Of a stretch of 43,652 bases of DNA, positions 13,757 to 37,445 are shown piece by piece. Source of the DNA: a virus; UHGV virus genome UHGV-0122704. The stretch is one strand, 5' to 3'. The notes below the pieces were generated by a model. That model was given only the letters and a program-made list of their open reading frames with translations. It did no database searches and was not told where the DNA came from. Position numbers and translations under genes: made by a program. Each line of letters opens with the position of its first letter. Positions within the stretch are counted from its first letter, which is position 1.

Positions 13757-14191
13757 ATGTCGATGTGTATTGACCACGGGTATAACAAATGCCTTAACAA
13801 GAACGGATACCGCCGGGCATGGTATAAGCCGACCAGGCGATTGGAGCTGCTGCATCGGGTGGTGTATGCTGAGCATAACGGGCTGGATATAAGGGCGCTG
13901 GCTGGCCTGTCTGTTAGACATACCTGCGATAACCCCAGGTGCATTAACCCTAAGCACTTAGTATTGGGAACGCATATGGATAATATGCGGGACCGTGCAG
14001 AGCGCGGAAGGAACCCAGATGTGCGTGGGGATAGGAACCCAAAAGCGCAGTTAACTTGGGATGCTGTGCAGGATATCAGGGATAACTATATCCCATACAA
14101 GAAAGGTATGCGGCAACACTTTGCTAATAAGTACGGTGTAGGTGTACATGTAATTAGTGACGTAATAAGTAACAGGAGCTGGAATGCCTAA
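13757..14191 (+). CDS. HNH homing endonuclease (HNH_3-type)
   Basis: LHRVVYAEHNG...HTCDNPRCINPKHLVLGTHMDNMRD; RBS AAGAGGA. Confidence 0.85.
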   Translation: MSMCIDHGYNKCLNKNGYRRAWYKPTRRLELLHRVVYAEHNGLDIRALAGLSVRHTCDNPRCINPKHLVLGTHMDNMRDRAERGRNPDVRGDRNPKAQLTWDAVQDIRDNYIPYKKGMRQHFANKYGVGVHVISDVISNRSWNA

Positions 14192-15173
14192 GTTAAACAC
14201 AATAAAGCTATTCACCAAAGAGCAACACATAGATATCTTGAGCAAGCACAGCTCTAACGTGGATGCTGCTGCCGCCTATAATAATCTGGCGGGACTGGAC
14301 GAGCCAGTGGTGTATCGACAGATGGTGAAGTACTGGCGCAGCATATTCCTAGACCACGCTGGGAGCAAGGGTAAGGCAATATCCCACATGAAGGAGGCAC
14401 TAAAGCTCATACAGCCCAGTCCCACTGATGACATCGGCAAAACCTTCGTGCCGGAAGTGTGCCACCGTATTCTCGTAGTTGGGGATTTGCATGCCCCCTA
14501 TACGCACGTAGATGCTATGGCCTTCTTAGAATCTGTGCGAGACGCCTACTGTCCGGACATGGTTGTACAGGTAGGCGACGAGACGGACGGCCACGCTATA
14601 TCATTCCACGAAAGTAACCCGAACCTAGATAGCGCCGGGGTGGAGCTGGAGAAAGCCAAGCTCGTACTGGAGGAGCTGCATGAACTATTCCCGAACCTAC
14701 TGGTTTGCGATTCCAATCACGGCAGTCTGGTTTACCGCAGGGCGAAAGCTCACGGGCTACCAGTGCAATTCATCAAGAAGTACCGAGATATACTTTTCCC
14801 TGAGCATGGTGCCCCGGCGTGGTCTTGGGCTGACGCATGGGTACTCAATACCCCACTTGGCCCGGTTAGATTCCAGCATCAAGTGTCGGGTGACTTCATG
14901 CTCAACGCTAGCCACGAAAGAACCAGCCTTGTCCTTGGTCACGAACATGGTCGCTTTGAGGTGCAATATGCAGCTAGCTCAACAGCTTTGTACTTTGGTG
15001 CGTATGCTGGGTGTCTGATTGACCGTAAGAGCATGGCCTTTGCTTACGGCAGACTCACCCGCAAGAAACCAATCCTGGGTGTGATGGTAATCACCGAGGG
15101 CTGTCCGCAGTTAATCCCGATGCTGCTTGATGATTCCGGAAGGTGGTGTGCAAGAGATAAAACCAAAGACTGA
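14184..15173 (+). CDS. Calcineurin-like metallophosphoesterase (possible nuclease/phosphatase)
   Basis: Ordered motifs GDLHA (D-x-H), GDETDGH (GD-x-x-D), SNHG (N-H) and GHEHG (GH-x-H). Confidence 0.75.
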   Translation: MPKLNTIKLFTKEQHIDILSKHSSNVDAAAAYNNLAGLDEPVVYRQMVKYWRSIFLDHAGSKGKAISHMKEALKLIQPSPTDDIGKTFVPEVCHRILVVGDLHAPYTHVDAMAFLESVRDAYCPDMVVQVGDETDGHAISFHESNPNLDSAGVELEKAKLVLEELHELFPNLLVCDSNHGSLVYRRAKAHGLPVQFIKKYRDILFPEHGAPAWSWADAWVLNTPLGPVRFQHQVSGDFMLNASHERTSLVLGHEHGRFEVQYAASSTALYFGAYAGCLIDRKSMAFAYGRLTRKKPILGVMVITEGCPQLIPMLLDDSGRWCARDKTKD

Positions 15174-15195
15174 TACAGGAAAGAGATTCCGCGGT

Positions 15196-15699
15196 ATGGT
15201 TGTTTATACCTGGGACTGCCCTTACTGTGGCGAGGAGTTTGAGGCGATACGCACTAAGCTATTCAATACCAGTAAGCGCGGCGGCCTTGGTCACTGCGGA
15301 TGTCAAACTAAACTCAGGCAAAGTGAGAAGAATACTGGACGAACTCCGCCTAATAAGCTGGACGACTTAACAGTATCGGCGAATAAGGTATGGGCCTTTA
15401 GCACTAAGTTAGGTAGGAGTATTACTAAGGAAGACGCCAAGGCCTTAGTAAGCGCAGATTGTTATTACTGCGGCGCGCCACCCAGTACCTACCGGGAACT
15501 CGGCAGTGGGAGATGGGCGCGTAAATCCACAGTACCCACTAACGGGATAGACCGGAAGGATTCACGCATTGGGTACCATTTAGACAACTGTGTGCCATGC
15601 TGCCCTACCTGCAACTATATGAAGTCTGACATGCACCACGATGACTTCGTAGGACTGTGCAAACGCATAGCCCTGCATCTGCACGTAAATATCATTTAA
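15196..15699 (+). CDS. Cys-rich HNH-like endonuclease (start uncertain; track start 15127)
   Basis: CPYCGEEF, CGC, CYYCG and YHLDNCVPCCPTCNYMKSDMHHDDF suggest a zinc-binding HNH fold. ATG 15196 chosen to avoid a 45-nt overlap. Confidence 0.5.
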   Translation: MVVYTWDCPYCGEEFEAIRTKLFNTSKRGGLGHCGCQTKLRQSEKNTGRTPPNKLDDLTVSANKVWAFSTKLGRSITKEDAKALVSADCYYCGAPPSTYRELGSGRWARKSTVPTNGIDRKDSRIGYHLDNCVPCCPTCNYMKSDMHHDDFVGLCKRIALHLHVNII

Positions 15700-16562: not shown

Positions 16563-16817
16563 ATGAACATCATCAAGATTCTCATCAAACTCCTGAGCGC
16601 AGCCTACACAGCAGAAGCTAAACGCGCCGATGCCAAAGCGCAGTTTAACGAGCAGTTGTCAGTTAAATTCGCAGACGACGCAGTGCGTCTGGCCGCTCAA
16701 TCCGAGGCGCGCGTAGAGGCATCCAAGCATAGCAAAGAGTTAGCCGAGGCGTGCGCTTGCCATGCTGATAACCTGCGCGCTAAGCGTGATGAAGTAGCTA
16801 ACTTCCTGGAGGTATAA
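16563..16817 (+). CDS. Hypothetical protein (84 aa)
   Basis: ATG 16563 preceded by AGAGGAAG. Confidence 0.55.
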   Translation: MNIIKILIKLLSAAYTAEAKRADAKAQFNEQLSVKFADDAVRLAAQSEARVEASKHSKELAEACACHADNLRAKRDEVANFLEV

Positions 16818-17096
16818 ATGCGCATAATCACATGGGCCAAAGAACAGTACGCTGTGTTTCTGCTTCTGCGTGCACAGCGTTTGCAGAAGCGAGCAAATGA
16901 CTGGCACCGGGCAGCTAATTCTCACGCACACAGGGCAAGCCTTCTGGGTGCCGAGATTAGCGCACACCGCTATCACTTGACTCGCCAGTGCGCCAAGTCC
17001 CGACGCCGTGCATACGCCCTGGGTGCAGAGGCTACGGCCACTGAGACCAAAGCCCACAATTTCATTTCAAAACACAAATTGAAAGGATTTGACTAA
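16818..17096 (+). CDS. Hypothetical protein (92 aa), basic
   Basis: ATG 16818 preceded by GGAGG. Confidence 0.55.
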   Translation: MRIITWAKEQYAVFLLLRAQRLQKRANDWHRAANSHAHRASLLGAEISAHRYHLTRQCAKSRRRAYALGAEATATETKAHNFISKHKLKGFD

Positions 17097-17470
17097 TGGA
17101 CAAAGTACTAGACGCATACAAGAAACTGGTTCTGGCTGTAGGTTACGTGAACTGTAGCGCCGTTCAAGGTTTCGACAATGGTGACCAGCTCGGCGCTGTG
17201 TACGATGCTCTGGACAAGCTGGCGGCCCTGTACGGCATGGACCTGGAGTTGGCTGCTACCGCCTTCAAGGAGCACAATGACCTGGCGGCACATGCCGATA
17301 AGTTACGGGGTGATGACCTAGTGCTTATCCGCATTGTGGGTACCCTAAGCATCGGGCTGGCGGAGATTGGTTCCTGCATCTACGACGTAGACCAGAGCCT
17401 GCGTACCACGGAAGTAATCGGGGACATGCTTGGCACCGTGTTGGTGCTATCTGAACTGGAGGGTATATAA
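17096..17470 (+). CDS. Hypothetical protein (124 aa), acidic
   Basis: ATG 17096 preceded by AAAGGA. Confidence 0.55.
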   Translation: MDKVLDAYKKLVLAVGYVNCSAVQGFDNGDQLGAVYDALDKLAALYGMDLELAATAFKEHNDLAAHADKLRGDDLVLIRIVGTLSIGLAEIGSCIYDVDQSLRTTEVIGDMLGTVLVLSELEGI

Positions 17471-17631
17471 TGCGTAAATTTATATCCTACATAATTTCAG
17501 TCCCAGCACTGGTACTACTTGCAATCAGCTTGATGCTAATGGCGCTGGCGCTCAGTGTAGCCGGAGGCTCTAAGGGCGTGGCTATGCTGGGCCGTGCAAT
17601 CCATGCTTTTACTGACCACTTAAAGGTGTAG
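17470..17631 (+). CDS. Small membrane protein (53 aa, one TM helix)
   Basis: MRKFISYIISVPALVLLAISLMLMALALSVAGG...; start overlaps the upstream stop. Confidence 0.45.
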   Translation: MRKFISYIISVPALVLLAISLMLMALALSVAGGSKGVAMLGRAIHAFTDHLKV

Positions 17632-17634
17632 AGA

Positions 17635-17796
17635 ATGCGTAACTTCTTTGCAAAATCATTTTACTTCCTGTTAGTAGCCCCGCTAGTGCCTGTAGCTATC
17701 CTGTGCTGGGCATTTGAGAAGGTAGAAAACAGTCAGGCGCCGACCGCCTGGGAATCCTGGGCGCGTAAGTTGACCAAGAAGGTTACGGGGGTCTGA
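17635..17796 (+). CDS. Small membrane protein (53 aa, one TM helix)
   Basis: MRNFFAKSFYFLLVAPLVPVAILCWAF...; same length and M-R-(K/N)-F start as the preceding ORF; stop overlaps the exonuclease start. Confidence 0.45.
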   Translation: MRNFFAKSFYFLLVAPLVPVAILCWAFEKVENSQAPTAWESWARKLTKKVTGV

Positions 17797-18764
17797 TGAT
17801 TATCAACGGGGTTGACTTGTCCCAGCTCGGGGAGCAGTTAGCTCCGCAGAACTCTGGGAAGATTCTGCTGTACGACGCGGATTTCACAGTTTATAAATCT
17901 GCTGCTACAGTGAAACGTTTGGATACCGCGATACGCCGCTTCTATCAGCTGGTGCTTGAGGACATGTTCCTGGTCGGCTGCTCAGAAGCAGTGGCGTATC
18001 TGACGCCTACGGGGTGTGCTAAGTGCCTGCGCTGGCACCTGCCTACGGCTAAGCCGTACCAAGGGAACCGCAATAAGCGTCAGGAGCTGCCACTCAAGGC
18101 ACCGTTGAAGCGGCACCTGATTGAGAACCCGGACCAGTATTCTGAGCATGGCATACAAGTGGTAAGCAGTGACTACTTCGAGGCGGATGACCTGTTCATA
18201 ATGGATTCGTACAGCTTCGGGGACCGTGGAATCCTGATGTCTCAGGACAAGGACTCCTGGCTCAGCCCTATGGCCCGGTTCGATATCCCAACCGGAACCG
18301 TATGGCCTGCCTTGGATAACCCCTTCGGATGGATTAAGTGGGATGATACCCAGGCTATGCCGGTACGAGCGCATGGCACTAAGTTCTTCTGGTGGCAGAT
18401 GCTAGCAGGAGATGACGCAGATAACGTCAAAGGCATCACATTGCTTGATGGGAAGCTCTGTGGGAAGCGAACGGCCTTTGATGCTATCTACCCTATTACC
18501 TCAGAGCAGGACGCCGCAGAATTCGTTGTAGCGGCTTACGCTCGAAACAACCAAGATGTACTCGCAGAGGCAGAATGCCTGTTCCTGCGGCGCTCCCCGT
18601 CAGATTCAGCGTACCTGTATCTGATGTCACTGTTGACTACTCCCAGTCTGCGTGACTGGGTGCATTCGCTGCACGAGTACCATAAACAGCATATACAGTG
18701 GATACAGGAGCACCCAGACAATGGCGAAGATGTCTGCGAAGGAAATGAGCCTGCGGGCGATTGA
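17796..18764 (+). CDS. 5'-3' exonuclease (T7 gp6-like, FEN family)
   Basis: ILLYDADFTVYKSAA, SQDKDSWL and GDDADNVKGI parallel T7 gp6 acidic-cluster motifs. Confidence 0.85.
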   Translation: MIINGVDLSQLGEQLAPQNSGKILLYDADFTVYKSAATVKRLDTAIRRFYQLVLEDMFLVGCSEAVAYLTPTGCAKCLRWHLPTAKPYQGNRNKRQELPLKAPLKRHLIENPDQYSEHGIQVVSSDYFEADDLFIMDSYSFGDRGILMSQDKDSWLSPMARFDIPTGTVWPALDNPFGWIKWDDTQAMPVRAHGTKFFWWQMLAGDDADNVKGITLLDGKLCGKRTAFDAIYPITSEQDAAEFVVAAYARNNQDVLAEAECLFLRRSPSDSAYLYLMSLLTTPSLRDWVHSLHEYHKQHIQWIQEHPDNGEDVCEGNEPAGD

Positions 18765-20106: not shown

Positions 20107-22575
20107 ATGATTAGCGCCCTGAATACGGTTGTAGTACCAGAGGAAGCACTGGTGAAACGCCAGCTGGAGCTTGAAGAGACCTATAAGATTCGCGGAATCG
20201 AGCGGGCACGTAAGCTGATTACGGACGCATTGCAGAACGGTGGGATTATGAACCTGCCGATGACGCAGCGTATGCTCACCTCGGCATATGAGGTGGCCGC
20301 CGCCGCTATCGATGAGATGCGAAATGTAAAAGCCCCGGGCATTGGCGGTAAGTACCGCCGGTTCCTGCGCTTAGTCCCCTTGGATGTCCTGACCACCCTG
20401 AGCCTATGCACAATGTTTGAGGCATTTAGCGTAGCTCCTGGCGAGTCCGCTAGCCGCCGCCAGACTGCACAGGCGGTAATGTCCGCGCTGGGCCGGAACG
20501 TACAATCGGAACTGCTGGCCCTGCAGTTACGCAACGTGGCTCCGGCGTACATGGACCGTGTGTACGAGTACCTTACGGAGCGTAAGACCAAGTCTCCCAC
20601 GCACATCCTGCGTACGCTGCGGGCCAGTGCTGAGAACGTGCACTATGGGCACGAGCCATGGACCAACTCCCAGAATATCTCAGTAGGTCGGCTGCTATGT
20701 GCCGCGGTGTTTGAGACTGGCCTGTTCCAATGGAAGAACTGTAGTGGGAACCTGAGCATGCTCTACCCGGCTGACGATGTTATGGAGGCCTTCCAGAAAC
20801 TGGTAGAGTCCGCTGATACCGTAACCATGAAGCCGCCTATGCTGGTGCCACCGGTACAGCACACCACTATGTGGGATGGCGGGTACCTTACCCCCATCGA
20901 CAATCGCGGGACCTATCACAACTCGCACATCGACCGCGCGCGACTCCGTGAAGTAGCAGAAGCATTCAAGTCCGCGGACGGCATCAAAAAGGCGCTTAAT
21001 AAGGCGCAGGAAACCCCATACCGTATTAATAAGCGCATACTGGAACTGGTGCAAGAAGCACGGGCCCTGGGTATTGGGGTGGGCATGCCCCGCTCAGTAC
21101 CAGAGCCTAAACCGGAGTGGTACTTGGATGGAGTACCAAAAGAGAACTACACCGAAGAAGAACTGGACCGCTTCGGTGAGTGGAAGACGCGCATGTCCCT
21201 ATGGTACAGCGCAGACCGTAAGCGTGTGTCACAACTACGCAGCCTGTTGACCACGCTGGAAATGGCGGAGGAATTCAAAGATGAGAAAGCCCTGTACTTC
21301 CCGACTTGTGTGGACTGGCGCTACCGCCTGTACTTCAAGTCCTCGCTGCATCCCCAAGGTTCTGATTTGCAGAAAGCCCTTCTTGAATTCGGACGTGGCA
21401 AGCCTCTGGGAGAGCGCGGACTTTTCTGGCTTAAAGTGCACGTCGCCACTTGCTTTGGTTATGACAAAACCCTATTCGAAGACCGTGCAGCTTGGGTTGA
21501 TGCGAACTATGCAGAGATTGAGAGGCTCGCGGATTCTCCTCTTGATGCCCCTGCTTTTTCCTCTGCGGATAGCCCCTGGTGCCTGCTGGCCGCCGCTATC
21601 GACTTGGTTAATGCGGTTCGTTCTGGATGCCCAGAAGAGCATATTAGCCGAATCCCAGTTGCTATGGACGCTACAAACTCAGGTGGACAGCATCTCTCAG
21701 CGCTCCTGAGAGACCCTGTGGGCGGACGCTTGACGAACCTGTACTGGGAGGGTAATGATAAGAAAGCGGACCTGTACATGGACGTGAAGCGCCGTACGGA
21801 CGAGAAGGTGATACTGGACCTGGACAAGGAGGATTTCGTTATCCAGAGCACGTACTGGAGAGAGAACGAAATCACCCGCAGCATGACCAAGCGCCCTAGT
21901 ATGACCTACTTCTACAGCGCCACTGTGCGCAGCTGCAGCGACTACATCTTCGAAGGCGCTTGCGCTGAGGGGTACGAGGGTACTGAGACTAACAGTCTGT
22001 GGAACTTGTCATGCTACCTGGCTCCGCGTATGCGCACTGCTATCGAGGAGGCAAACCCAGCCGCAGCCGCAGTTATGGGGTACTTGCAGAACCTCGCTAG
22101 GCGTGTACCGGCAAGCCAGCATCTGCAGTGGTATACGCCGCTGGGTGGGCTCGTAATGAACCGCTACACGCAGCGTGAAGAAGTGCGCGTACGTATTGAC
22201 TGCATGAACCTATCAGCGGTACTGGTACACAACCGGGACTTCAAAACTTGCAACAAGCGCAAGGCAGCCTCCGGGATTGCCCCGAACTTTGTGCATAGCC
22301 TGGACAGTACGCACTTGATGATGGTGCTCTGCGCTGCGGAGGGTCTGGATATTGTGCCTATTCACGACTCGCTGGCTACTCACGCAGCTGACGTTGACGC
22401 TATGCATAGGCACATCCGTGAGCAGTTTGTGCGCCTGTATGAAGAGAATGACCTGCTTGGCGACATTACTCGCGCAGCAGCAGCAGCCGGGGCAGACTTG
22501 ACGGACCTGGACATGCCGGAAGTGGGCACTTTGGACATCCGGCAAGTGCTAGAATCCCCGTTCTTCTTCTGCTAA
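20107..22575 (+). CDS. Single-subunit DNA-dependent RNA polymerase (T7-like)
   Basis: Motif A VAMDATNSGGQHLSALLRD, motif B RSMTKRPSMTYFYSAT and motif C IHDSLATH correspond to the T7 RNAP catalytic motifs; RBS AAGGAGA. Confidence 0.95.
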   Translation: MISALNTVVVPEEALVKRQLELEETYKIRGIERARKLITDALQNGGIMNLPMTQRMLTSAYEVAAAAIDEMRNVKAPGIGGKYRRFLRLVPLDVLTTLSLCTMFEAFSVAPGESASRRQTAQAVMSALGRNVQSELLALQLRNVAPAYMDRVYEYLTERKTKSPTHILRTLRASAENVHYGHEPWTNSQNISVGRLLCAAVFETGLFQWKNCSGNLSMLYPADDVMEAFQKLVESADTVTMKPPMLVPPVQHTTMWDGGYLTPIDNRGTYHNSHIDRARLREVAEAFKSADGIKKALNKAQETPYRINKRILELVQEARALGIGVGMPRSVPEPKPEWYLDGVPKENYTEEELDRFGEWKTRMSLWYSADRKRVSQLRSLLTTLEMAEEFKDEKALYFPTCVDWRYRLYFKSSLHPQGSDLQKALLEFGRGKPLGERGLFWLKVHVATCFGYDKTLFEDRAAWVDANYAEIERLADSPLDAPAFSSADSPWCLLAAAIDLVNAVRSGCPEEHISRIPVAMDATNSGGQHLSALLRDPVGGRLTNLYWEGNDKKADLYMDVKRRTDEKVILDLDKEDFVIQSTYWRENEITRSMTKRPSMTYFYSATVRSCSDYIFEGACAEGYEGTETNSLWNLSCYLAPRMRTAIEEANPAAAAVMGYLQNLARRVPASQHLQWYTPLGGLVMNRYTQREEVRVRIDCMNLSAVLVHNRDFKTCNKRKAASGIAPNFVHSLDSTHLMMVLCAAEGLDIVPIHDSLATHAADVDAMHRHIREQFVRLYEENDLLGDITRAAAAAGADLTDLDMPEVGTLDIRQVLESPFFFC

Positions 22576-22581
22576 AAAATT

Positions 22582-22600
22582 TAATGTTACAGGAGTAGGA
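22582..22600 (+). promoter_or_regulatory. Copy B of conserved 19-bp motif TAATGTTACAGGAGTAGGA, abutting the start codon of gene 22601
   Basis: Exact 19-mer shared with 34490..34508 and 17-mer shared with 1859..1875. Sits between RNAP and the first late gene; its AGGAG doubles as the RBS. Confidence 0.6.
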
Positions 22601-33746: not shown

Positions 33747-36700
33747 ATGGCTCAGTTTCTGAACCAAGAACCGAATCCACAGGAAAAGGATTCTGCTAAG
33801 GGCGCAACACTTAAACCTGCGCCTGAGCGCGTAGATTGGAACGATGCCGGAGACAACGGCTTAAACGCACTGGAGCGTGCCTCCTTACTGGCGCAGGCCA
33901 AGACCCCAGCTACTACAGCCGGGGAGAGCTTTGCGTCTGGTATGGGTAACAGCATCATCGCCGCAGCTATCCGTAAGGCCTCTGCCCCGGCATTTGACCG
34001 GGACCAGAACTTTAACGCCAAGCAGACTCTGAGCAGCGATACCAGGGCTAAGCTGTATGCTCCGAATCAGGAAGAGATTGAGTACCTGCACGACTCTGTA
34101 TCGGTCGAGGATTACAACTACCGCATGCAGCAGATGCTTGAGCAACGCAACCGTGACCGCTTAATGGCTGACAACACGGTAGCCGGGTTCGCGGGTATGT
34201 TGGTGGGTGATTCTCCGTTCATCCTGGCCCCGATGTCTGCCGCTGGTATTGCTGGCCGCGCAGGCTTAGCTGCACGGACTGCTATCCGCGCTGCTGACGT
34301 AGGCTCCGCATTCTATGCGCAGGACCAACTGGGCCAGTCTGCTGCGGTAACTGCACTGGTAGCGGGCGTAGCTGGGTTGGACCAGCTCTGGGATATGTCT
34401 AGGGCTGCTAAAGCTGCTGCTAAGGCTCGTACTGGGCGTGAGCCTATGTTCGACCCAGAAGCGCCTACAACTCGTACAGCGAGGGACGCTAATGTTACAG
34501 GAGTAGGAGAGGGAGAGGAAATCCTTACTAAGACACTGGATGAAAGCATCCAAGTATCTAGAAACAATACCGCCTCCGTGAACATGAAAGCACAGCACGT
34601 AGTTCAGTTCTTGAAGAAGTCCGAACACTTAACAGCAGGCCAGAAGGCTATTCTGGACACGCTGGGCGATGCTGTAAATGACATTGATTTTAAACTGGTA
34701 GCAGGCTCCGCAAACCGCAGCCGCTACACTTACGCACAGCAAGATTTAGCTAAGCGTGGAGAGGTGTCTCTACGCGCACCTAAGCGAGCTAATGGCAGCA
34801 CATGGACTACAGCAGGGGACGCACTGCGTGCTATGGATGCAGACACAAGCAGGGTAGCCGTGCACGAACTGATTCATGCCGCCACTGCGCGCGCCGTTGA
34901 CAGTAACCCAGAGATTGCTAAGCGCCTGGATGAAGTGCGCGCTGTTATTGCAGCGGACTCCACCTTGACGCCGCGTATGCGGTATTACGCTAGTAATGTG
35001 CACGAGATGCTGGCAGGCTTAGGTGACAGCCCTGAGTGGGTTGAGCATCTGGCGCGGACGAAATCCCCAACCGGTAAGAGCATGCTCCGCCAACTGGGCG
35101 AGTACATCATGAATGCCCTGGGCATCAAGGCCAAAGGTTCTGCCTTGGAAGATGTCTTGGATGCGTACGAGGACGCCGTTAAGTGGACAGCTAAGGATTA
35201 TGCAGACCAAGCCCAGGGCTTCCGTAGTGAAGCCTTCCAGGACCTGGCGGGCAGCACTACCCTAAACGAGGCTAAGGGTGCCCAAGCTATGCTGGATGGC
35301 GCTAAGAAGAAGCTCTCTACTATGTTTGCCCTGTACGATAACATCGCTCAAGGCAATGAAGACTTGGCTAAACTGCTAGTGTCGGATGCGTCCGCAGTAG
35401 GCGGCCGTCGCCCGTCTGTAGTGGACTTCAAGCGCAACCTCACTTTGGAGATGGACGCCAGCGCTAGCGTAGTGGAAGACGCTATCCTGGGCGCGTTGAA
35501 GGATAAGGGTGTAGGTTTCTCTGAGCGCTTCTTCCATCGGAGCAAGTTCCGCGCTGAGCGGGCTGCACTGGAAGACCGCCTGAGCAAGTACCTGGATGCT
35601 GCCTACAGTGCTGATGTAAACGGCCGAGCTGTTCCCGTACCGGATGCAGAGATTGCCCCACTGGTTGACGCCTATCGCCGCTCTGGCTGGGCAGGCAAGT
35701 GGCACGAGCATATGCTCAATGCTGGTCTAGTGGATGATGGTGCGTTGGTTAAATCCGATTACTACTTCCCGCGTCAGTACAGCTACGACAAGATGCGCCA
35801 AGGTATTGCGCAGGGTAACACTCTGGACGACTACCGCGCCCTGTTCAGGTCCGCCCTGCGGGACGTGTACCCGAGCATGGAGTCAGAGGTAGTGCAGCGT
35901 GTTGCAAAGGAGATGGTTGACGGTATCTACAACGGCCGTGCAGGGCAGTCCGGCCCGATGTGGAAGCAGCTGATTAACGGCATGGGTAACGACGAGGTCG
36001 TTATGGCTATGCGTAGCGCTGGTGTAGATGAATCTGCAATCCAGAGTTTCCTGGCTGGTAACGTACGCGAATCCGGTAGCACATCCCCTGCGCGGAACCT
36101 GCGTCAGCGTACTCGGTTCAACATGGACAAAGAGTATCTGGTGAACGGTAAGAGCATGCGCATGCAGGACCTGATGGATACTGATGTAGCCAAGGTTATG
36201 CACGGGTACACTAACCGTATGTCTGGGCGTGTAGGCATGGCCTATGCAGGCGTACAGGACCTGGGCCAGCTAGCTAAGATGATTGATGAGTCTAAGCACG
36301 CACTGGCGGATTCCGCTAAGTGGGAGAAGACAGTCAATGACACCATCGACTTTATCCTGGGTGGGGCGCCTGCTGACGCCGGACAGCTTCCGGATTTGCT
36401 GCGTGCAGCCGGGAACATGGCTAACGCCACCATGCTTAAGAACTCCGGCCTGTATCAGCTGACTGACACTGCCCTGGCTATGAAGGAGTTCGGTATGGCT
36501 AGAGTGCTGCGTAGTATGCGTGACCAGCCTTGGTTCAAGGAAGGTGCCGTAGCTATCAAGACTCCGGATATGGCTACCCGTCTAGACACTGTACTGCGAG
36601 GTAATATCCAGAAGGAGATGCGCTTCCGCTGGTTGAATACGTACGCCGACGATAACCTGGACCTGACCCGTCAGGCCTCTTGGTTCAATGTAACCCAGAA

Positions 36701-37445
36701 CGTTGGGCAGGCTGCGCGTCACGTCAACGGTATGAGCATGGTGCACCGGCTGCAGGTTAACCTGAACTCCGGCATTGTGGCGGATGAGCTTACCCAGATG
36801 TTCAAGGGTGATGCTGCGGCGTTTAAGCGTCTGGAGCGTTTCGGGCTTACCCGCGACGTTGCTGACCGTGCCATCGCTGCCAACAAAGCCAACCCGGGCG
36901 CCATGTTCCAGCCGGACCTGCAAATGCAAGTTGAGGTTGTAGGGACGCGTATGATGGACTACCTGGTACAGCAGGTTCGTACTGGAGAGACCTCACACTT
37001 TGCACAGTTCAACCCTATCGGCAAAGTCATTGTAGGGTACCAGAGCTTCGCACTGGCCGCCACTAACAAGATTCTGCGTAGGGAGCTGAGCGACGCTGGG
37101 TGGATTGGCGTAGCCCATATTATGGCGTATCAATTCCCGCTGATGCTACTGGCTACTATGGCTAAGCACGGTATGGATGGGAAGGACGTAGACACCCAGA
37201 AACTCATCGGTGAGTCCGTGATGGGTATGAGTGCCATTGGCGGTGTATCCTTACTACAGGATATCTTCCTGGGGGATTCTCCCCGTCACTCATTGGCATC
37301 TATGGGTTACGTCACAGGACTACTTGGGGCTGTGCAGGACCTGGCTACCGGTAATATGGATATCAAGACCTTCACTAAGCAGGTGCCGTTAATCCAGGAA
37401 TTCGCACCTACGCGAGCTATCATCAATAACTTCGGAGACGATTAA
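33747..37445 (+). CDS. Internal virion (core / ejectosome) protein, gp16-like
   Basis: 1232 aa, the largest ORF, at the position of T7 gp16; RBS AGGAG. Confidence 0.75.
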   Translation: MAQFLNQEPNPQEKDSAKGATLKPAPERVDWNDAGDNGLNALERASLLAQAKTPATTAGESFASGMGNSIIAAAIRKASAPAFDRDQNFNAKQTLSSDTRAKLYAPNQEEIEYLHDSVSVEDYNYRMQQMLEQRNRDRLMADNTVAGFAGMLVGDSPFILAPMSAAGIAGRAGLAARTAIRAADVGSAFYAQDQLGQSAAVTALVAGVAGLDQLWDMSRAAKAAAKARTGREPMFDPEAPTTRTARDANVTGVGEGEEILTKTLDESIQVSRNNTASVNMKAQHVVQFLKKSEHLTAGQKAILDTLGDAVNDIDFKLVAGSANRSRYTYAQQDLAKRGEVSLRAPKRANGSTWTTAGDALRAMDADTSRVAVHELIHAATARAVDSNPEIAKRLDEVRAVIAADSTLTPRMRYYASNVHEMLAGLGDSPEWVEHLARTKSPTGKSMLRQLGEYIMNALGIKAKGSALEDVLDAYEDAVKWTAKDYADQAQGFRSEAFQDLAGSTTLNEAKGAQAMLDGAKKKLSTMFALYDNIAQGNEDLAKLLVSDASAVGGRRPSVVDFKRNLTLEMDASASVVEDAILGALKDKGVGFSERFFHRSKFRAERAALEDRLSKYLDAAYSADVNGRAVPVPDAEIAPLVDAYRRSGWAGKWHEHMLNAGLVDDGALVKSDYYFPRQYSYDKMRQGIAQGNTLDDYRALFRSALRDVYPSMESEVVQRVAKEMVDGIYNGRAGQSGPMWKQLINGMGNDEVVMAMRSAGVDESAIQSFLAGNVRESGSTSPARNLRQRTRFNMDKEYLVNGKSMRMQDLMDTDVAKVMHGYTNRMSGRVGMAYAGVQDLGQLAKMIDESKHALADSAKWEKTVNDTIDFILGGAPADAGQLPDLLRAAGNMANATMLKNSGLYQLTDTALAMKEFGMARVLRSMRDQPWFKEGAVAIKTPDMATRLDTVLRGNIQKEMRFRWLNTYADDNLDLTRQASWFNVTQNVGQAARHVNGMSMVHRLQVNLNSGIVADELTQMFKGDAAAFKRLERFGLTRDVADRAIAANKANPGAMFQPDLQMQVEVVGTRMMDYLVQQVRTGETSHFAQFNPIGKVIVGYQSFALAATNKILRRELSDAGWIGVAHIMAYQFPLMLLATMAKHGMDGKDVDTQKLIGESVMGMSAIGGVSLLQDIFLGDSPRHSLASMGYVTGLLGAVQDLATGNMDIKTFTKQVPLIQEFAPTRAIINNFGDD
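34490..34508 (+). promoter_or_regulatory. Copy C of conserved 19-bp motif TAATGTTACAGGAGTAGGA, inside the gp16-like gene
   Basis: Exact 19-mer identical to 22582..22600; lies in-frame within the coding sequence (encodes ...ANVTGVGEGEE...). Confidence 0.6.

Follow-up and report, generated by a model that had tools for sequence, protein, structure and literature searches.

Two separate families of predicted small membrane proteins, one core and one optional, encoded upstream of the exonuclease gene in KP34-like Klebsiella phages

Two adjacent ORFs upstream of an exonuclease gene

The stretch of DNA analysed in this work, referred to below as the window (UHGV virus genome UHGV-0122704; 43,652 nucleotides), carries all its genes on the + strand. 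Comparison with GenBank of the 3 kb surrounding the locus described below revealed 90-98% identity to about 250 Klebsiella phages (259 records matched), and the taxonomy of the matched phages, where given, was Autographiviridae, Slopekvirinae, genus Drulisvirus (KP34-like). Judged by its sequence, the window is the genome of a KP34-like Drulisvirus Klebsiella phage.

An initial annotation of the window had described two adjacent ORFs of 53 aa, each with one hydrophobic helix, located upstream of a 5′-3′ exonuclease gene and translationally coupled to the neighbouring genes. The existence and position of both ORFs, designated here A and B, were confirmed from the sequence and from the ORF list, and their translations are MRKFISYIISVPALVLLAISLMLMALALSVAGGSKGVAMLGRAIHAFTDHLKV (A) and MRNFFAKSFYFLLVAPLVPVAILCWAFEKVENSQAPTAWESWARKLTKKVTGV (B). 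The genes and translation signals of the locus are the following:

17096..17470, + strand: gene of a 124-aa core protein (phrog_6607), upstream neighbour; its stop overlaps the start of A
17458..17463, + strand: Shine-Dalgarno sequence GGAGGG, 6 nt 5′ of the ATG of A, within the end of the 124-aa gene (from the sequence)
17470..17631, + strand: ORF A, predicted 53-aa accessory small membrane protein, phrog_17815 (from the ORF list, PHROG and pN/pS)
17623..17628, + strand: Shine-Dalgarno-like sequence AAGGTG, 6 nt 5′ of the ATG of B, within the end of A (from the sequence)
17635..17796, + strand: ORF B, core gene, 'B' allele of phrog_7652, predicted small membrane protein of 53 aa (from the ORF list, PHROG and pN/pS)
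17796..18764, + strand: gene of a 5′-3′ exonuclease of 322 aa (phrog_107), downstream neighbour; its ATG overlaps the stop of B

The downstream gene product matched phrog_107 with E=2.5e-70 and an exonuclease is also annotated in the records of relatives, in agreement with the location originally described. Regarding translational coupling, the ATG of A overlaps by 1 nt the stop codon of the 124-aa gene (TAATG, 17468-17472), the ATG of the exonuclease gene overlaps by 1 nt the stop codon of B (TGATG, 17794-17798), and a gap of 3 nt separates A from B. Since stop/start overlaps are the rule throughout the surrounding gene block, the coupling of A and B is real but not distinctive.

The strong promoter of the KP34 RNA polymerase (RNAP) has been published as T(A/G)ATGTTACAGGAGTA (PMC6834552). 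In the window, this promoter was found only at sites 1857, 22582 and 34490, and the RNAP gene, at 20107-22575, closes a long early/middle unit. This distribution of strong promoters places A and B within that early/middle (DNA-metabolism) unit of transcription. The search for promoters and terminators flanking A and B gave none above shuffle expectation, and an Rfam search of the window resulted in 0 matches.

The same annotation had considered both ORFs easily missed. This view could not be maintained: the GenBank entries of relatives annotate both A and B as CDS for hypothetical proteins, and both have a place in PHROG families. A matched phrog_17815 with E=1.2e-32 (residues 1-53 to positions 1-53 of the 53-position profile), and B matched phrog_7652 over its full length with E=1.2e-29. 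The same phrog_7652 profile was matched by B′, an alternative form of B described below (E=3.2e-33), and by the distant member P0039 (E=5.2e-16). Both ORFs were thus already catalogued, as hypothetical proteins or members of PHROG families without function, and one homologue had been assayed. Profile searches of Pfam, NCBIfam and PDB revealed no characterised protein resembling the A or B family, and in the published literature we found no function assigned to either family and no data on A.

To study the occurrence and conservation of these genes, 64 related loci were taken from IMG/VR and GenBank, and the ORFs that separate the 124-aa gene from the exonuclease gene were all typed. A lack of conservation in relatives had been put forward as grounds for discarding the two ORFs; on the contrary, across these loci A and B were conserved in frame and length and were under purifying selection: in codon alignments, pooled pN/pS was 0.275 in A, and the two alleles of the B family gave 0.253 (B) and 0.184 (B′). 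A similar value (0.24) was obtained for a soluble neighbour, ORF X.

Predicted membrane insertion and structure

As the signature of a single-pass transmembrane (TM) protein, we looked for a single helix, 19 or more residues long and with a Kyte-Doolittle value above approximately 1.6, whose hydrophobicity was kept across the family. Such a helix was found in the A, B and B′ families, with family means of the best 19-residue Kyte-Doolittle value (KD19) of 2.2-2.6 and family minima of 2.43 (A), 1.89 (B) and 1.94 (B′). Of the 56 + strand ORFs of the window, no more than three had KD19 values above 2.2, namely A, B and the u-spanin. The structural features of the two proteins, as derived from hydrophobicity and from AlphaFold2 (AF2) models, are the following:

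17506..17562, + strand: hydrophobic core of A, aa 13-31 (best KD19, 2.67; inside the AF2 helix of aa 2-32)
17569..17625, + strand: predicted amphipathic C-terminal helix of A, aa 34-52 (AF2 helix 34-52; hydrophobic moment)
17659..17715, + strand: hydrophobic segment of B, aa 9-27 (best KD19, 2.27; AF2 helices)
17737..17787, + strand: predicted Trp-/Lys-rich amphipathic C-terminal helix of B, aa 35-51 (AF2; hydrophobic moment)

The single hydrophobic helix attributed to each ORF is therefore upheld by the KD19 values, with which the AlphaFold2 helices agree. Models were built from the family alignments. That of A showed helices at residues 2-32 and 34-52, with a mean pLDDT of 82.4, and the alignment of this family contains a conserved small-xxx-small-xxx-small pattern formed by A25, S or G at position 29, and G33. 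The model of B (pLDDT 81.6) showed helices at residues 2-14, 17-32 and 35-51 with a break at P16; within its hydrophobic segment, P16 and P19 are invariant (a PLxP kink motif), and C24-W25 are mostly conserved. The hydrophobic moment of the C-terminal helix was 0.52 in A, 0.50 in B and 0.66 in B′, values reached by 0.3%, 0.9% and less than 1% of shuffles, respectively. Topology according to the positive-inside rule was equivocal: 1-2 K/R residues were counted in the N-terminal flank vs 3-7.5 in the C-terminal tail, and B and B′ gave conflicting results.

In both models, the predicted N-terminal helix has sufficient length to cross the inner membrane, and a short amphipathic helix forms the C-terminus. 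A and B are very probably real, expressed small membrane proteins, and on the basis of these predictions their location is probably the inner membrane.

Distribution of the two families and search for linked genes

The slot adjoining the exonuclease gene holds a B-family member of 52-55 aa in 64 of the 64 loci. This member is either B or the form B′, MLYVSRAIYVALILPLIPLAGLCYLGDKLSKAKWAERWVNWADKKARDITGR, which is about 30% identical to the B protein of the window. The two forms have in common the pattern Y..L..PLxP...LC(W/Y)..(D/E)K......W...A.K, and residues L13, P16, P19, W39 and A43 are invariant across B, B′ and the distant members. B′ was the more frequent form in the typed genomes (44 vs 17 with B) and also in GenBank, where 166 records with B′ and 83 with B together made up nearly all of the 259 region-matching records. 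On the other hand, A was present in 14 of the 64 loci and in 82 GenBank records; about one genome in three carries it, between the 124-aa gene and B. ORF X, which encodes a soluble 65-aa protein (phrog_7840), lies between A and B in 27 of the 64 loci and is absent from the window. In some genomes, an HNH endonuclease gene sits between B′ and the exonuclease gene, so that the general gene order can be written as 124-aa gene – [A] – [X] – B or B′ – [HNH] – exonuclease. Among the typed loci, A, X and B/B′ occurred in every combination but one, A plus B′ without X, which was seen only in the GenBank phage PQ5104. These mosaic gene combinations indicate that the locus is a small mosaic hot spot. 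Altogether, the data show that the genus has B (phrog_7652) as a core gene, with two ancient alleles that recombine freely with respect to all other genes, and that A (phrog_17815) is an optional cassette.

When 1.84 billion representative proteins were searched exhaustively with an HMM of the B family, only 4 further matches were obtained, which corresponded to 3 small B-like proteins and 1 spurious repeat protein. Two of the three B-like proteins were traced to metagenomic phage contigs in which the exonuclease is 65% identical, and the 124-aa gene 40-46% identical, to those of the window. The B-like ORFs of these contigs (51-54 aa) occupy the same slot and overlap the start of the exonuclease gene by 4 nt. 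Word-indexed searches gave matches only in contigs the size of Drulisvirus genomes. Single-TM ORFs of 63 and 66 aa were found in the same slot in Shigella phage Buco (Bucovirus) and Cronobacter phage Peggy, respectively, neither with a PHROG match; that of Buco showed a weak resemblance to A, with an hhalign probability of 55% across the TM helix. The Peggy ORF contains an 'LPGLC' motif reminiscent of B. No small TM ORF was present in the slot of relatives with exonucleases 43-53% identical (phiKMV-like phages and others), which invalidates the presence of a small TM ORF before the exonuclease gene as a rule for all phiKMV-like phages. The presence of such ORFs in Buco and Peggy and their absence from phiKMV-like phages indicate that a very small predicted membrane protein encoded in this slot is a feature of the KP34/Buco clade.

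A member of the B family was included in the screening of hypothetical proteins of Drulisvirus fHe-Kpn01 by Spruit et al. (PMC7291057). Gene g30 of this phage (53 aa, 16815-16976) lies directly 5′ of the exonuclease gene g31 (PMC7291057). Its product was 100% identical to SU503_27, the SU503 sequence having been checked against the published primers, and this Gp30/SU503_27 protein is a B-family member 62% identical to the B protein of the window. Gp30 was not detected in the virion proteome of fHe-Kpn01, and its relative transformation efficiency in E. coli was 1.03 ± 0.21 (Table S5), a value obtained with a different B allele and with protein expression unconfirmed (PMC7291057). From this single published test, the B family appears to be non-structural and non-toxic. 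The HHpred match of Gp30 to the ArcB TM segment (PMC7291057) merely reflects the presence of a TM helix.

Alleles that work together should stay together, and on this premise we carried out a genome-wide linkage scan in which about 50 IMG/VR genomes were tiled with three extra sets of loci and 44 genes were tested against three traits: the B/B′ allele, the presence of A and the presence of X. Across these 44 genes and about 50 genomes, no gene tracked B/B′, A or X, the immediate neighbours included. The maximum Cramér's V for the 124-aa gene and the exonuclease gene was 0.43-0.44, with Fst-like values of 0.00-0.06; this lack of association in the flanking genes indicates that the cassette is fully uncoupled from its neighbours by recombination.

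The sole outlier of the scan was the gene at 33747-37445, which encodes an internal virion (ejectosome) protein of 1232 aa; its Fst-like value was 0.40 and its permutation p approximately 0.001. The signal came from one divergent allele class present in 5 genomes (4 with B and 1 with B′). As an exclusion protein might track the ejectosome, this outlier was followed up in GenBank, where 16 distinct phages with the divergent ejectosome allele comprised 5 with B and 11 with B′, that is, 31% B compared with a baseline of 33%. The association was not replicated, and the closeness of these two values indicates that it is not real.

In descriptive terms, the new observations are that A and B belong to separate families, one core and the other accessory, that B/B′ is dimorphic, that the slot is conserved in sister genera, and that no linked partner gene was found.

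Possible functions and comparison with known systems

A and B are real, unrelated genes, B a core gene and A a cassette. The best overall explanation of these data, in which our confidence is somewhat short of even, is that the products of these genes serve as non-lytic inner-membrane adaptors. According to this proposal, both proteins would insert into the host inner membrane in the middle phase of infection and act there as small non-lytic TM adaptors, binding a membrane-embedded partner by helix packing in the manner of small membrane proteins of bacteria and of exclusion proteins of phages. The envelope of the infected cell would be conditioned in this way, for example by blocking the entry of DNA from competing phages (superinfection exclusion); alternatively, a host membrane protein might be silenced.

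Such an envelope-conditioning or exclusion-type role is putative, and we regard it as possible but doubtful, although more likely than the other roles considered; superinfection exclusion or an effect on the host membrane had also been suggested in the initial annotation. It is favoured by the non-lytic and non-structural character of the proteins, the deep allelic dimorphism and the cassette-like gain and loss; pore formation and DNA metabolism itself are less likely roles. Deep dimorphism together with presence/absence polymorphism, amid genes that are 92-99% identical, is typical of genes for interaction with hosts or competitors, and is suggestive here. The absence of Gp30 from virions and its lack of toxicity fit a non-lytic effector and prove nothing. 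Searches of Pfam, NCBIfam and PDB for exclusion families gave no match for A or B. The fixed position next to the exonuclease gene is unexplained by an envelope role and may reflect the general collinearity of these genomes.

A more specific proposal, which we consider rather improbable, is that B/B′ is a genus-wide two-allele inner-membrane protein of 'immunity type', acting either in the competition among Drulisvirus phages that infect the same cell, by exclusion with two specificity classes, or in the physical coupling of the recombination exonuclease to the membrane. Either reading, if true, would define a new functional class among the small membrane proteins encoded by core genes of phiKMV-like therapeutic phages. 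In that case, A and ORF X (65 aa) would represent optional cassettes added at this hot spot.

Among the alternatives to the adaptor reading, B might be a membrane tether or organiser for recombination or replication, whose basic, Trp-rich cytoplasmic tail recruits the co-translated exonuclease or DNA. The gene lies within the DNA-metabolism block, and a B or B-like TM ORF is found directly 5′ of the exonuclease gene, overlapping its start, even where the exonuclease is only 65% identical; the count of 5.5-7.5 K/R in the whole C-terminal tail vs 1-2 in the N-terminus also favours a cytoplasmic C-terminus. However, B and B′, at 30% identity, pair freely and without covariation with exonucleases that are 92-99% identical (Fst-like 0.06, maximum Cramér's V 0.44), the exonuclease is retained in phiKMV-like relatives that have no small TM ORF, and in some genomes the HNH endonuclease gene comes between B′ and the exonuclease gene. 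In addition, the stop/start overlaps are general in the block, and the tail of B comprises only about 26 aa and no DNA-binding domain. These data make a tethering role unlikely.

We also considered that A and/or B could modulate the timing of lysis, either as antiholin-like partners of the pinholin/SAR-endolysin system or by stabilising the membrane potential until late in infection. KP34-like phages possess a pinholin together with a SAR endolysin, the latter being released in dependence on the energised state of the membrane (PMC4411677). The layout of A and B, a TM helix and an amphipathic helix, is similar to that of small holin/antiholin-type proteins, and the B homologue was non-toxic alone, as an antiholin would be. 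On the other hand, about 23 kb separate A and B from the lysis cassette (40.9-42.4 kb), and their transcription class is another; they are unlike the holin, spanin and endolysin of the phage itself, the Pfam search gave no holin or antiholin match, and the B/B′ alleles were unlinked to those of the holin, spanin and endolysin (V 0.18-0.41). A function in lysis timing is accordingly quite unlikely.

A comparably low probability was assigned to A being a Sec-type precursor, in which residues 1-31/33 would form a cleavable signal peptide and release an amphipathic peptide of about 20 aa to the periplasm. In its favour, A has an MRK n-region, a hydrophobic core and a stretch of small residues, (S/G)-V-(A/V)-G-G, and the GenBank record of phage Pone names its A homologue 'putative secreted protein'. 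A Sec signal was taken to require an h-region of about 7-15 aa followed by small residues at -3 and -1. The core of about 24 residues in A far exceeds the usual signal-peptide h-regions and is TM-anchor-like. As to candidate cleavage sites, V-(A/V)-G|G is possible and S-V-A is not conserved, and many members of the family have Val at -1 of the AXA-like site that fits best.

It is highly unlikely that the peptides are functionless, the ORFs being only translational-coupling spacers for the exonuclease start or recently arisen. Packing is tight, with stop/start overlaps, and the last codons of B (ACG GGG GTC TGA) double as the ribosome-binding region of the exonuclease gene, so that C-terminal conservation could be partly at the nucleotide level. 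Selection data disfavour this explanation: amino-acid purifying selection extends along the whole length of the proteins (pN/pS 0.18-0.28), the hydrophobic helix, PLxP and W...A.K are kept in alleles with about 30% identity and in distant phage contigs, and A is absent from some genomes without disturbing the coupling.

Finally, the origin of A and B as paralogues, by tandem duplication of a single ancestral gene for a small membrane protein, implied by their initial description as a tandem pair and suggested by their equal length, M-R-(K/N)-F start, TM plus amphipathic-helix layout and a weak pairwise score of 27 that only 9 of 500 shuffles reached, was effectively refuted and retains next to no probability, since hhalign of the two profiles aligned only 'MR' (probability 0.9%), the proteins fall in different PHROGs, B is core whereas A is accessory, and B′, with 52 aa and a MLYV start, indicates that length and start are not family traits. 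The lack of homology and the different distributions imply that the common length and M-R-x-F start are a coincidence or a generic feature of N-terminal anchors.

Regarding the relevance of the locus, the result is mainly a tidying of annotation, with two separate ORFan families, a core dimorphic B and an accessory A. Few candidates for Klebsiella pneumoniae therapy are isolated as often as Drulisvirus phages, and every one of these has a B-family gene, a third of them also A. If exclusion or envelope alteration were true, it would influence the joint behaviour of related phages in cocktails and would bear on the safe deletion of 'hypothetical' genes in engineered phages.

When A and B are compared with known systems, the direct homologues are phrog_17815 for A and fHe-Kpn01 Gp30/phrog_7652 for B, with the same length, the same slot and full-length HMM matches. 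The toxins Hok and TisB and the class III holins are similar to A and B in size, in having one TM helix and in their charged C-terminus; they differ in that the B homologue is non-toxic and that A and B lie outside the lysis cassette and are unlike the holin of the phage. Proteins p16.7 and p1 of phi29 are small, N-terminally anchored membrane proteins that organise phage DNA replication and are encoded among replication genes. The N-terminal membrane anchor and the gene location among DNA-replication genes are thus common ground with B. However, p16.7 has a DNA-binding dimerisation domain of about 70 aa, whereas the 26-aa tail of B contains no recognisable domain, and neither homology to these proteins nor covariation with the exonuclease was found for B.

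The superinfection-exclusion proteins Imm and Sp of the virulent phage T4 (83-97 aa) are small, non-structural and non-toxic, are made before the late genes and act at the inner membrane. A and B would resemble them as small, apparently non-structural membrane proteins made before late genes, and differ in being smaller, in having no Pfam match or sequence similarity to them, and in that the B alleles do not track those of the ejectosome; we know of no exclusion phenotype for any Drulisvirus gene. MgrB, AcrZ, MgtS and MgtR are single-pass, non-toxic proteins of 30-50 aa in which the TM helix binds a larger membrane protein and modulates it. These are chromosomal and not phage genes and have no sequence relation to A or B, but it is their mode of action that we favour as the model of how A and B may work.

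Genes of the hot spot upstream of the exonuclease

Among the 64 related loci typed, 27 were found to carry ORF X, which was noted as a third optional cassette within the hot spot that holds A and B, the accessory and core 53-aa ORFs. ORF X is flanked on its 5′ side by A or the 124-aa gene and on its 3′ side by B or its diverged allele B′, and showed a pN/pS of 0.24. The window is devoid of this ORF, whose expected site there would lie between positions 17631 and 17635.

Features of the hot spot in related loci
L001:2635-2832, ORF X (phage SU552A gp27), soluble protein of 65-67 aa, phrog_7840
L040:2508-3014 and L041:2508-3014, HNH endonuclease of 168 aa between B′ and the exonuclease, phrog_99 (E=1e-48)
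L155:1614-1805, Shigella phage Buco gp27, 63-aa single-TM ORF in the pre-exonuclease slot
L154:1304-1504, Cronobacter phage Peggy gp260, 66-aa single-TM ORF in the pre-exonuclease slot

In two relatives (L040 and L041) an HNH endonuclease gene is inserted 5′ of the exonuclease gene, and the first 12 residues of its 168-aa product repeat the exonuclease N-terminus (MIINGVDLSQLG), a pattern reminiscent of a homing endonuclease that has acquired the start of its target by copying. An insert of about 420 nt, containing only short ORF remnants, was found at the B′/exonuclease junction in KP34 and a few other phages.

In the sister genera, the Buco ORF weakly resembles A and the Peggy ORF contains a B-like 'LPGLC' motif; neither matched any PHROG. 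These sequences suggest that small membrane proteins repeatedly refill the pre-exonuclease slot.

Other variable genes of the window

17096-17470, + strand, 124-aa core protein upstream of A, phrog_6607
15127-15699, + strand, Cys-rich HNH-like ORF of 190 aa
33747-37445, + strand, internal virion/ejectosome protein of 1232 aa

Two allele classes were likewise distinguished for the 124-aa protein and its homologues, one sharing about 80% identity with the protein of the window and the other 93-100%; these classes assort independently of B/B′. The ejectosome protein presents one sharply divergent allele class, carried by 5 IMG/VR contigs and 16 GenBank phages (AltoGao and F19 among them) whose genomes are otherwise closely related. 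In the N-terminal half this class shares only 46-70% identity with the other alleles, whereas identity among its members is 97-100%; the class is not linked to the B/B′ allele.

The 190-aa ORF overlaps the 3′ end of a 329-aa gene (14184-15173). Full-length tblastn matches (≥80% coverage) were obtained in only two sequences, one of them probably the window itself, among 70 related contigs plus the window. This ORF is probably a mobile homing endonuclease restricted to the phage lineage of the window.

Promoters for the KP34 RNA polymerase

The published strong promoter of the KP34 RNAP is T(A/G)ATGTTACAGGAGTA (PMC6834552), and three matches were located:

1857-1872, + strand, early region, one mismatch, exact match to the published S2 variant
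22582-22597, + strand, directly 3′ of the RNAP gene, exact
34490-34505, + strand, within the ejectosome gene, exact

The promoter layout reported for KP34 is the same as that of these three sites (PMC6834552).
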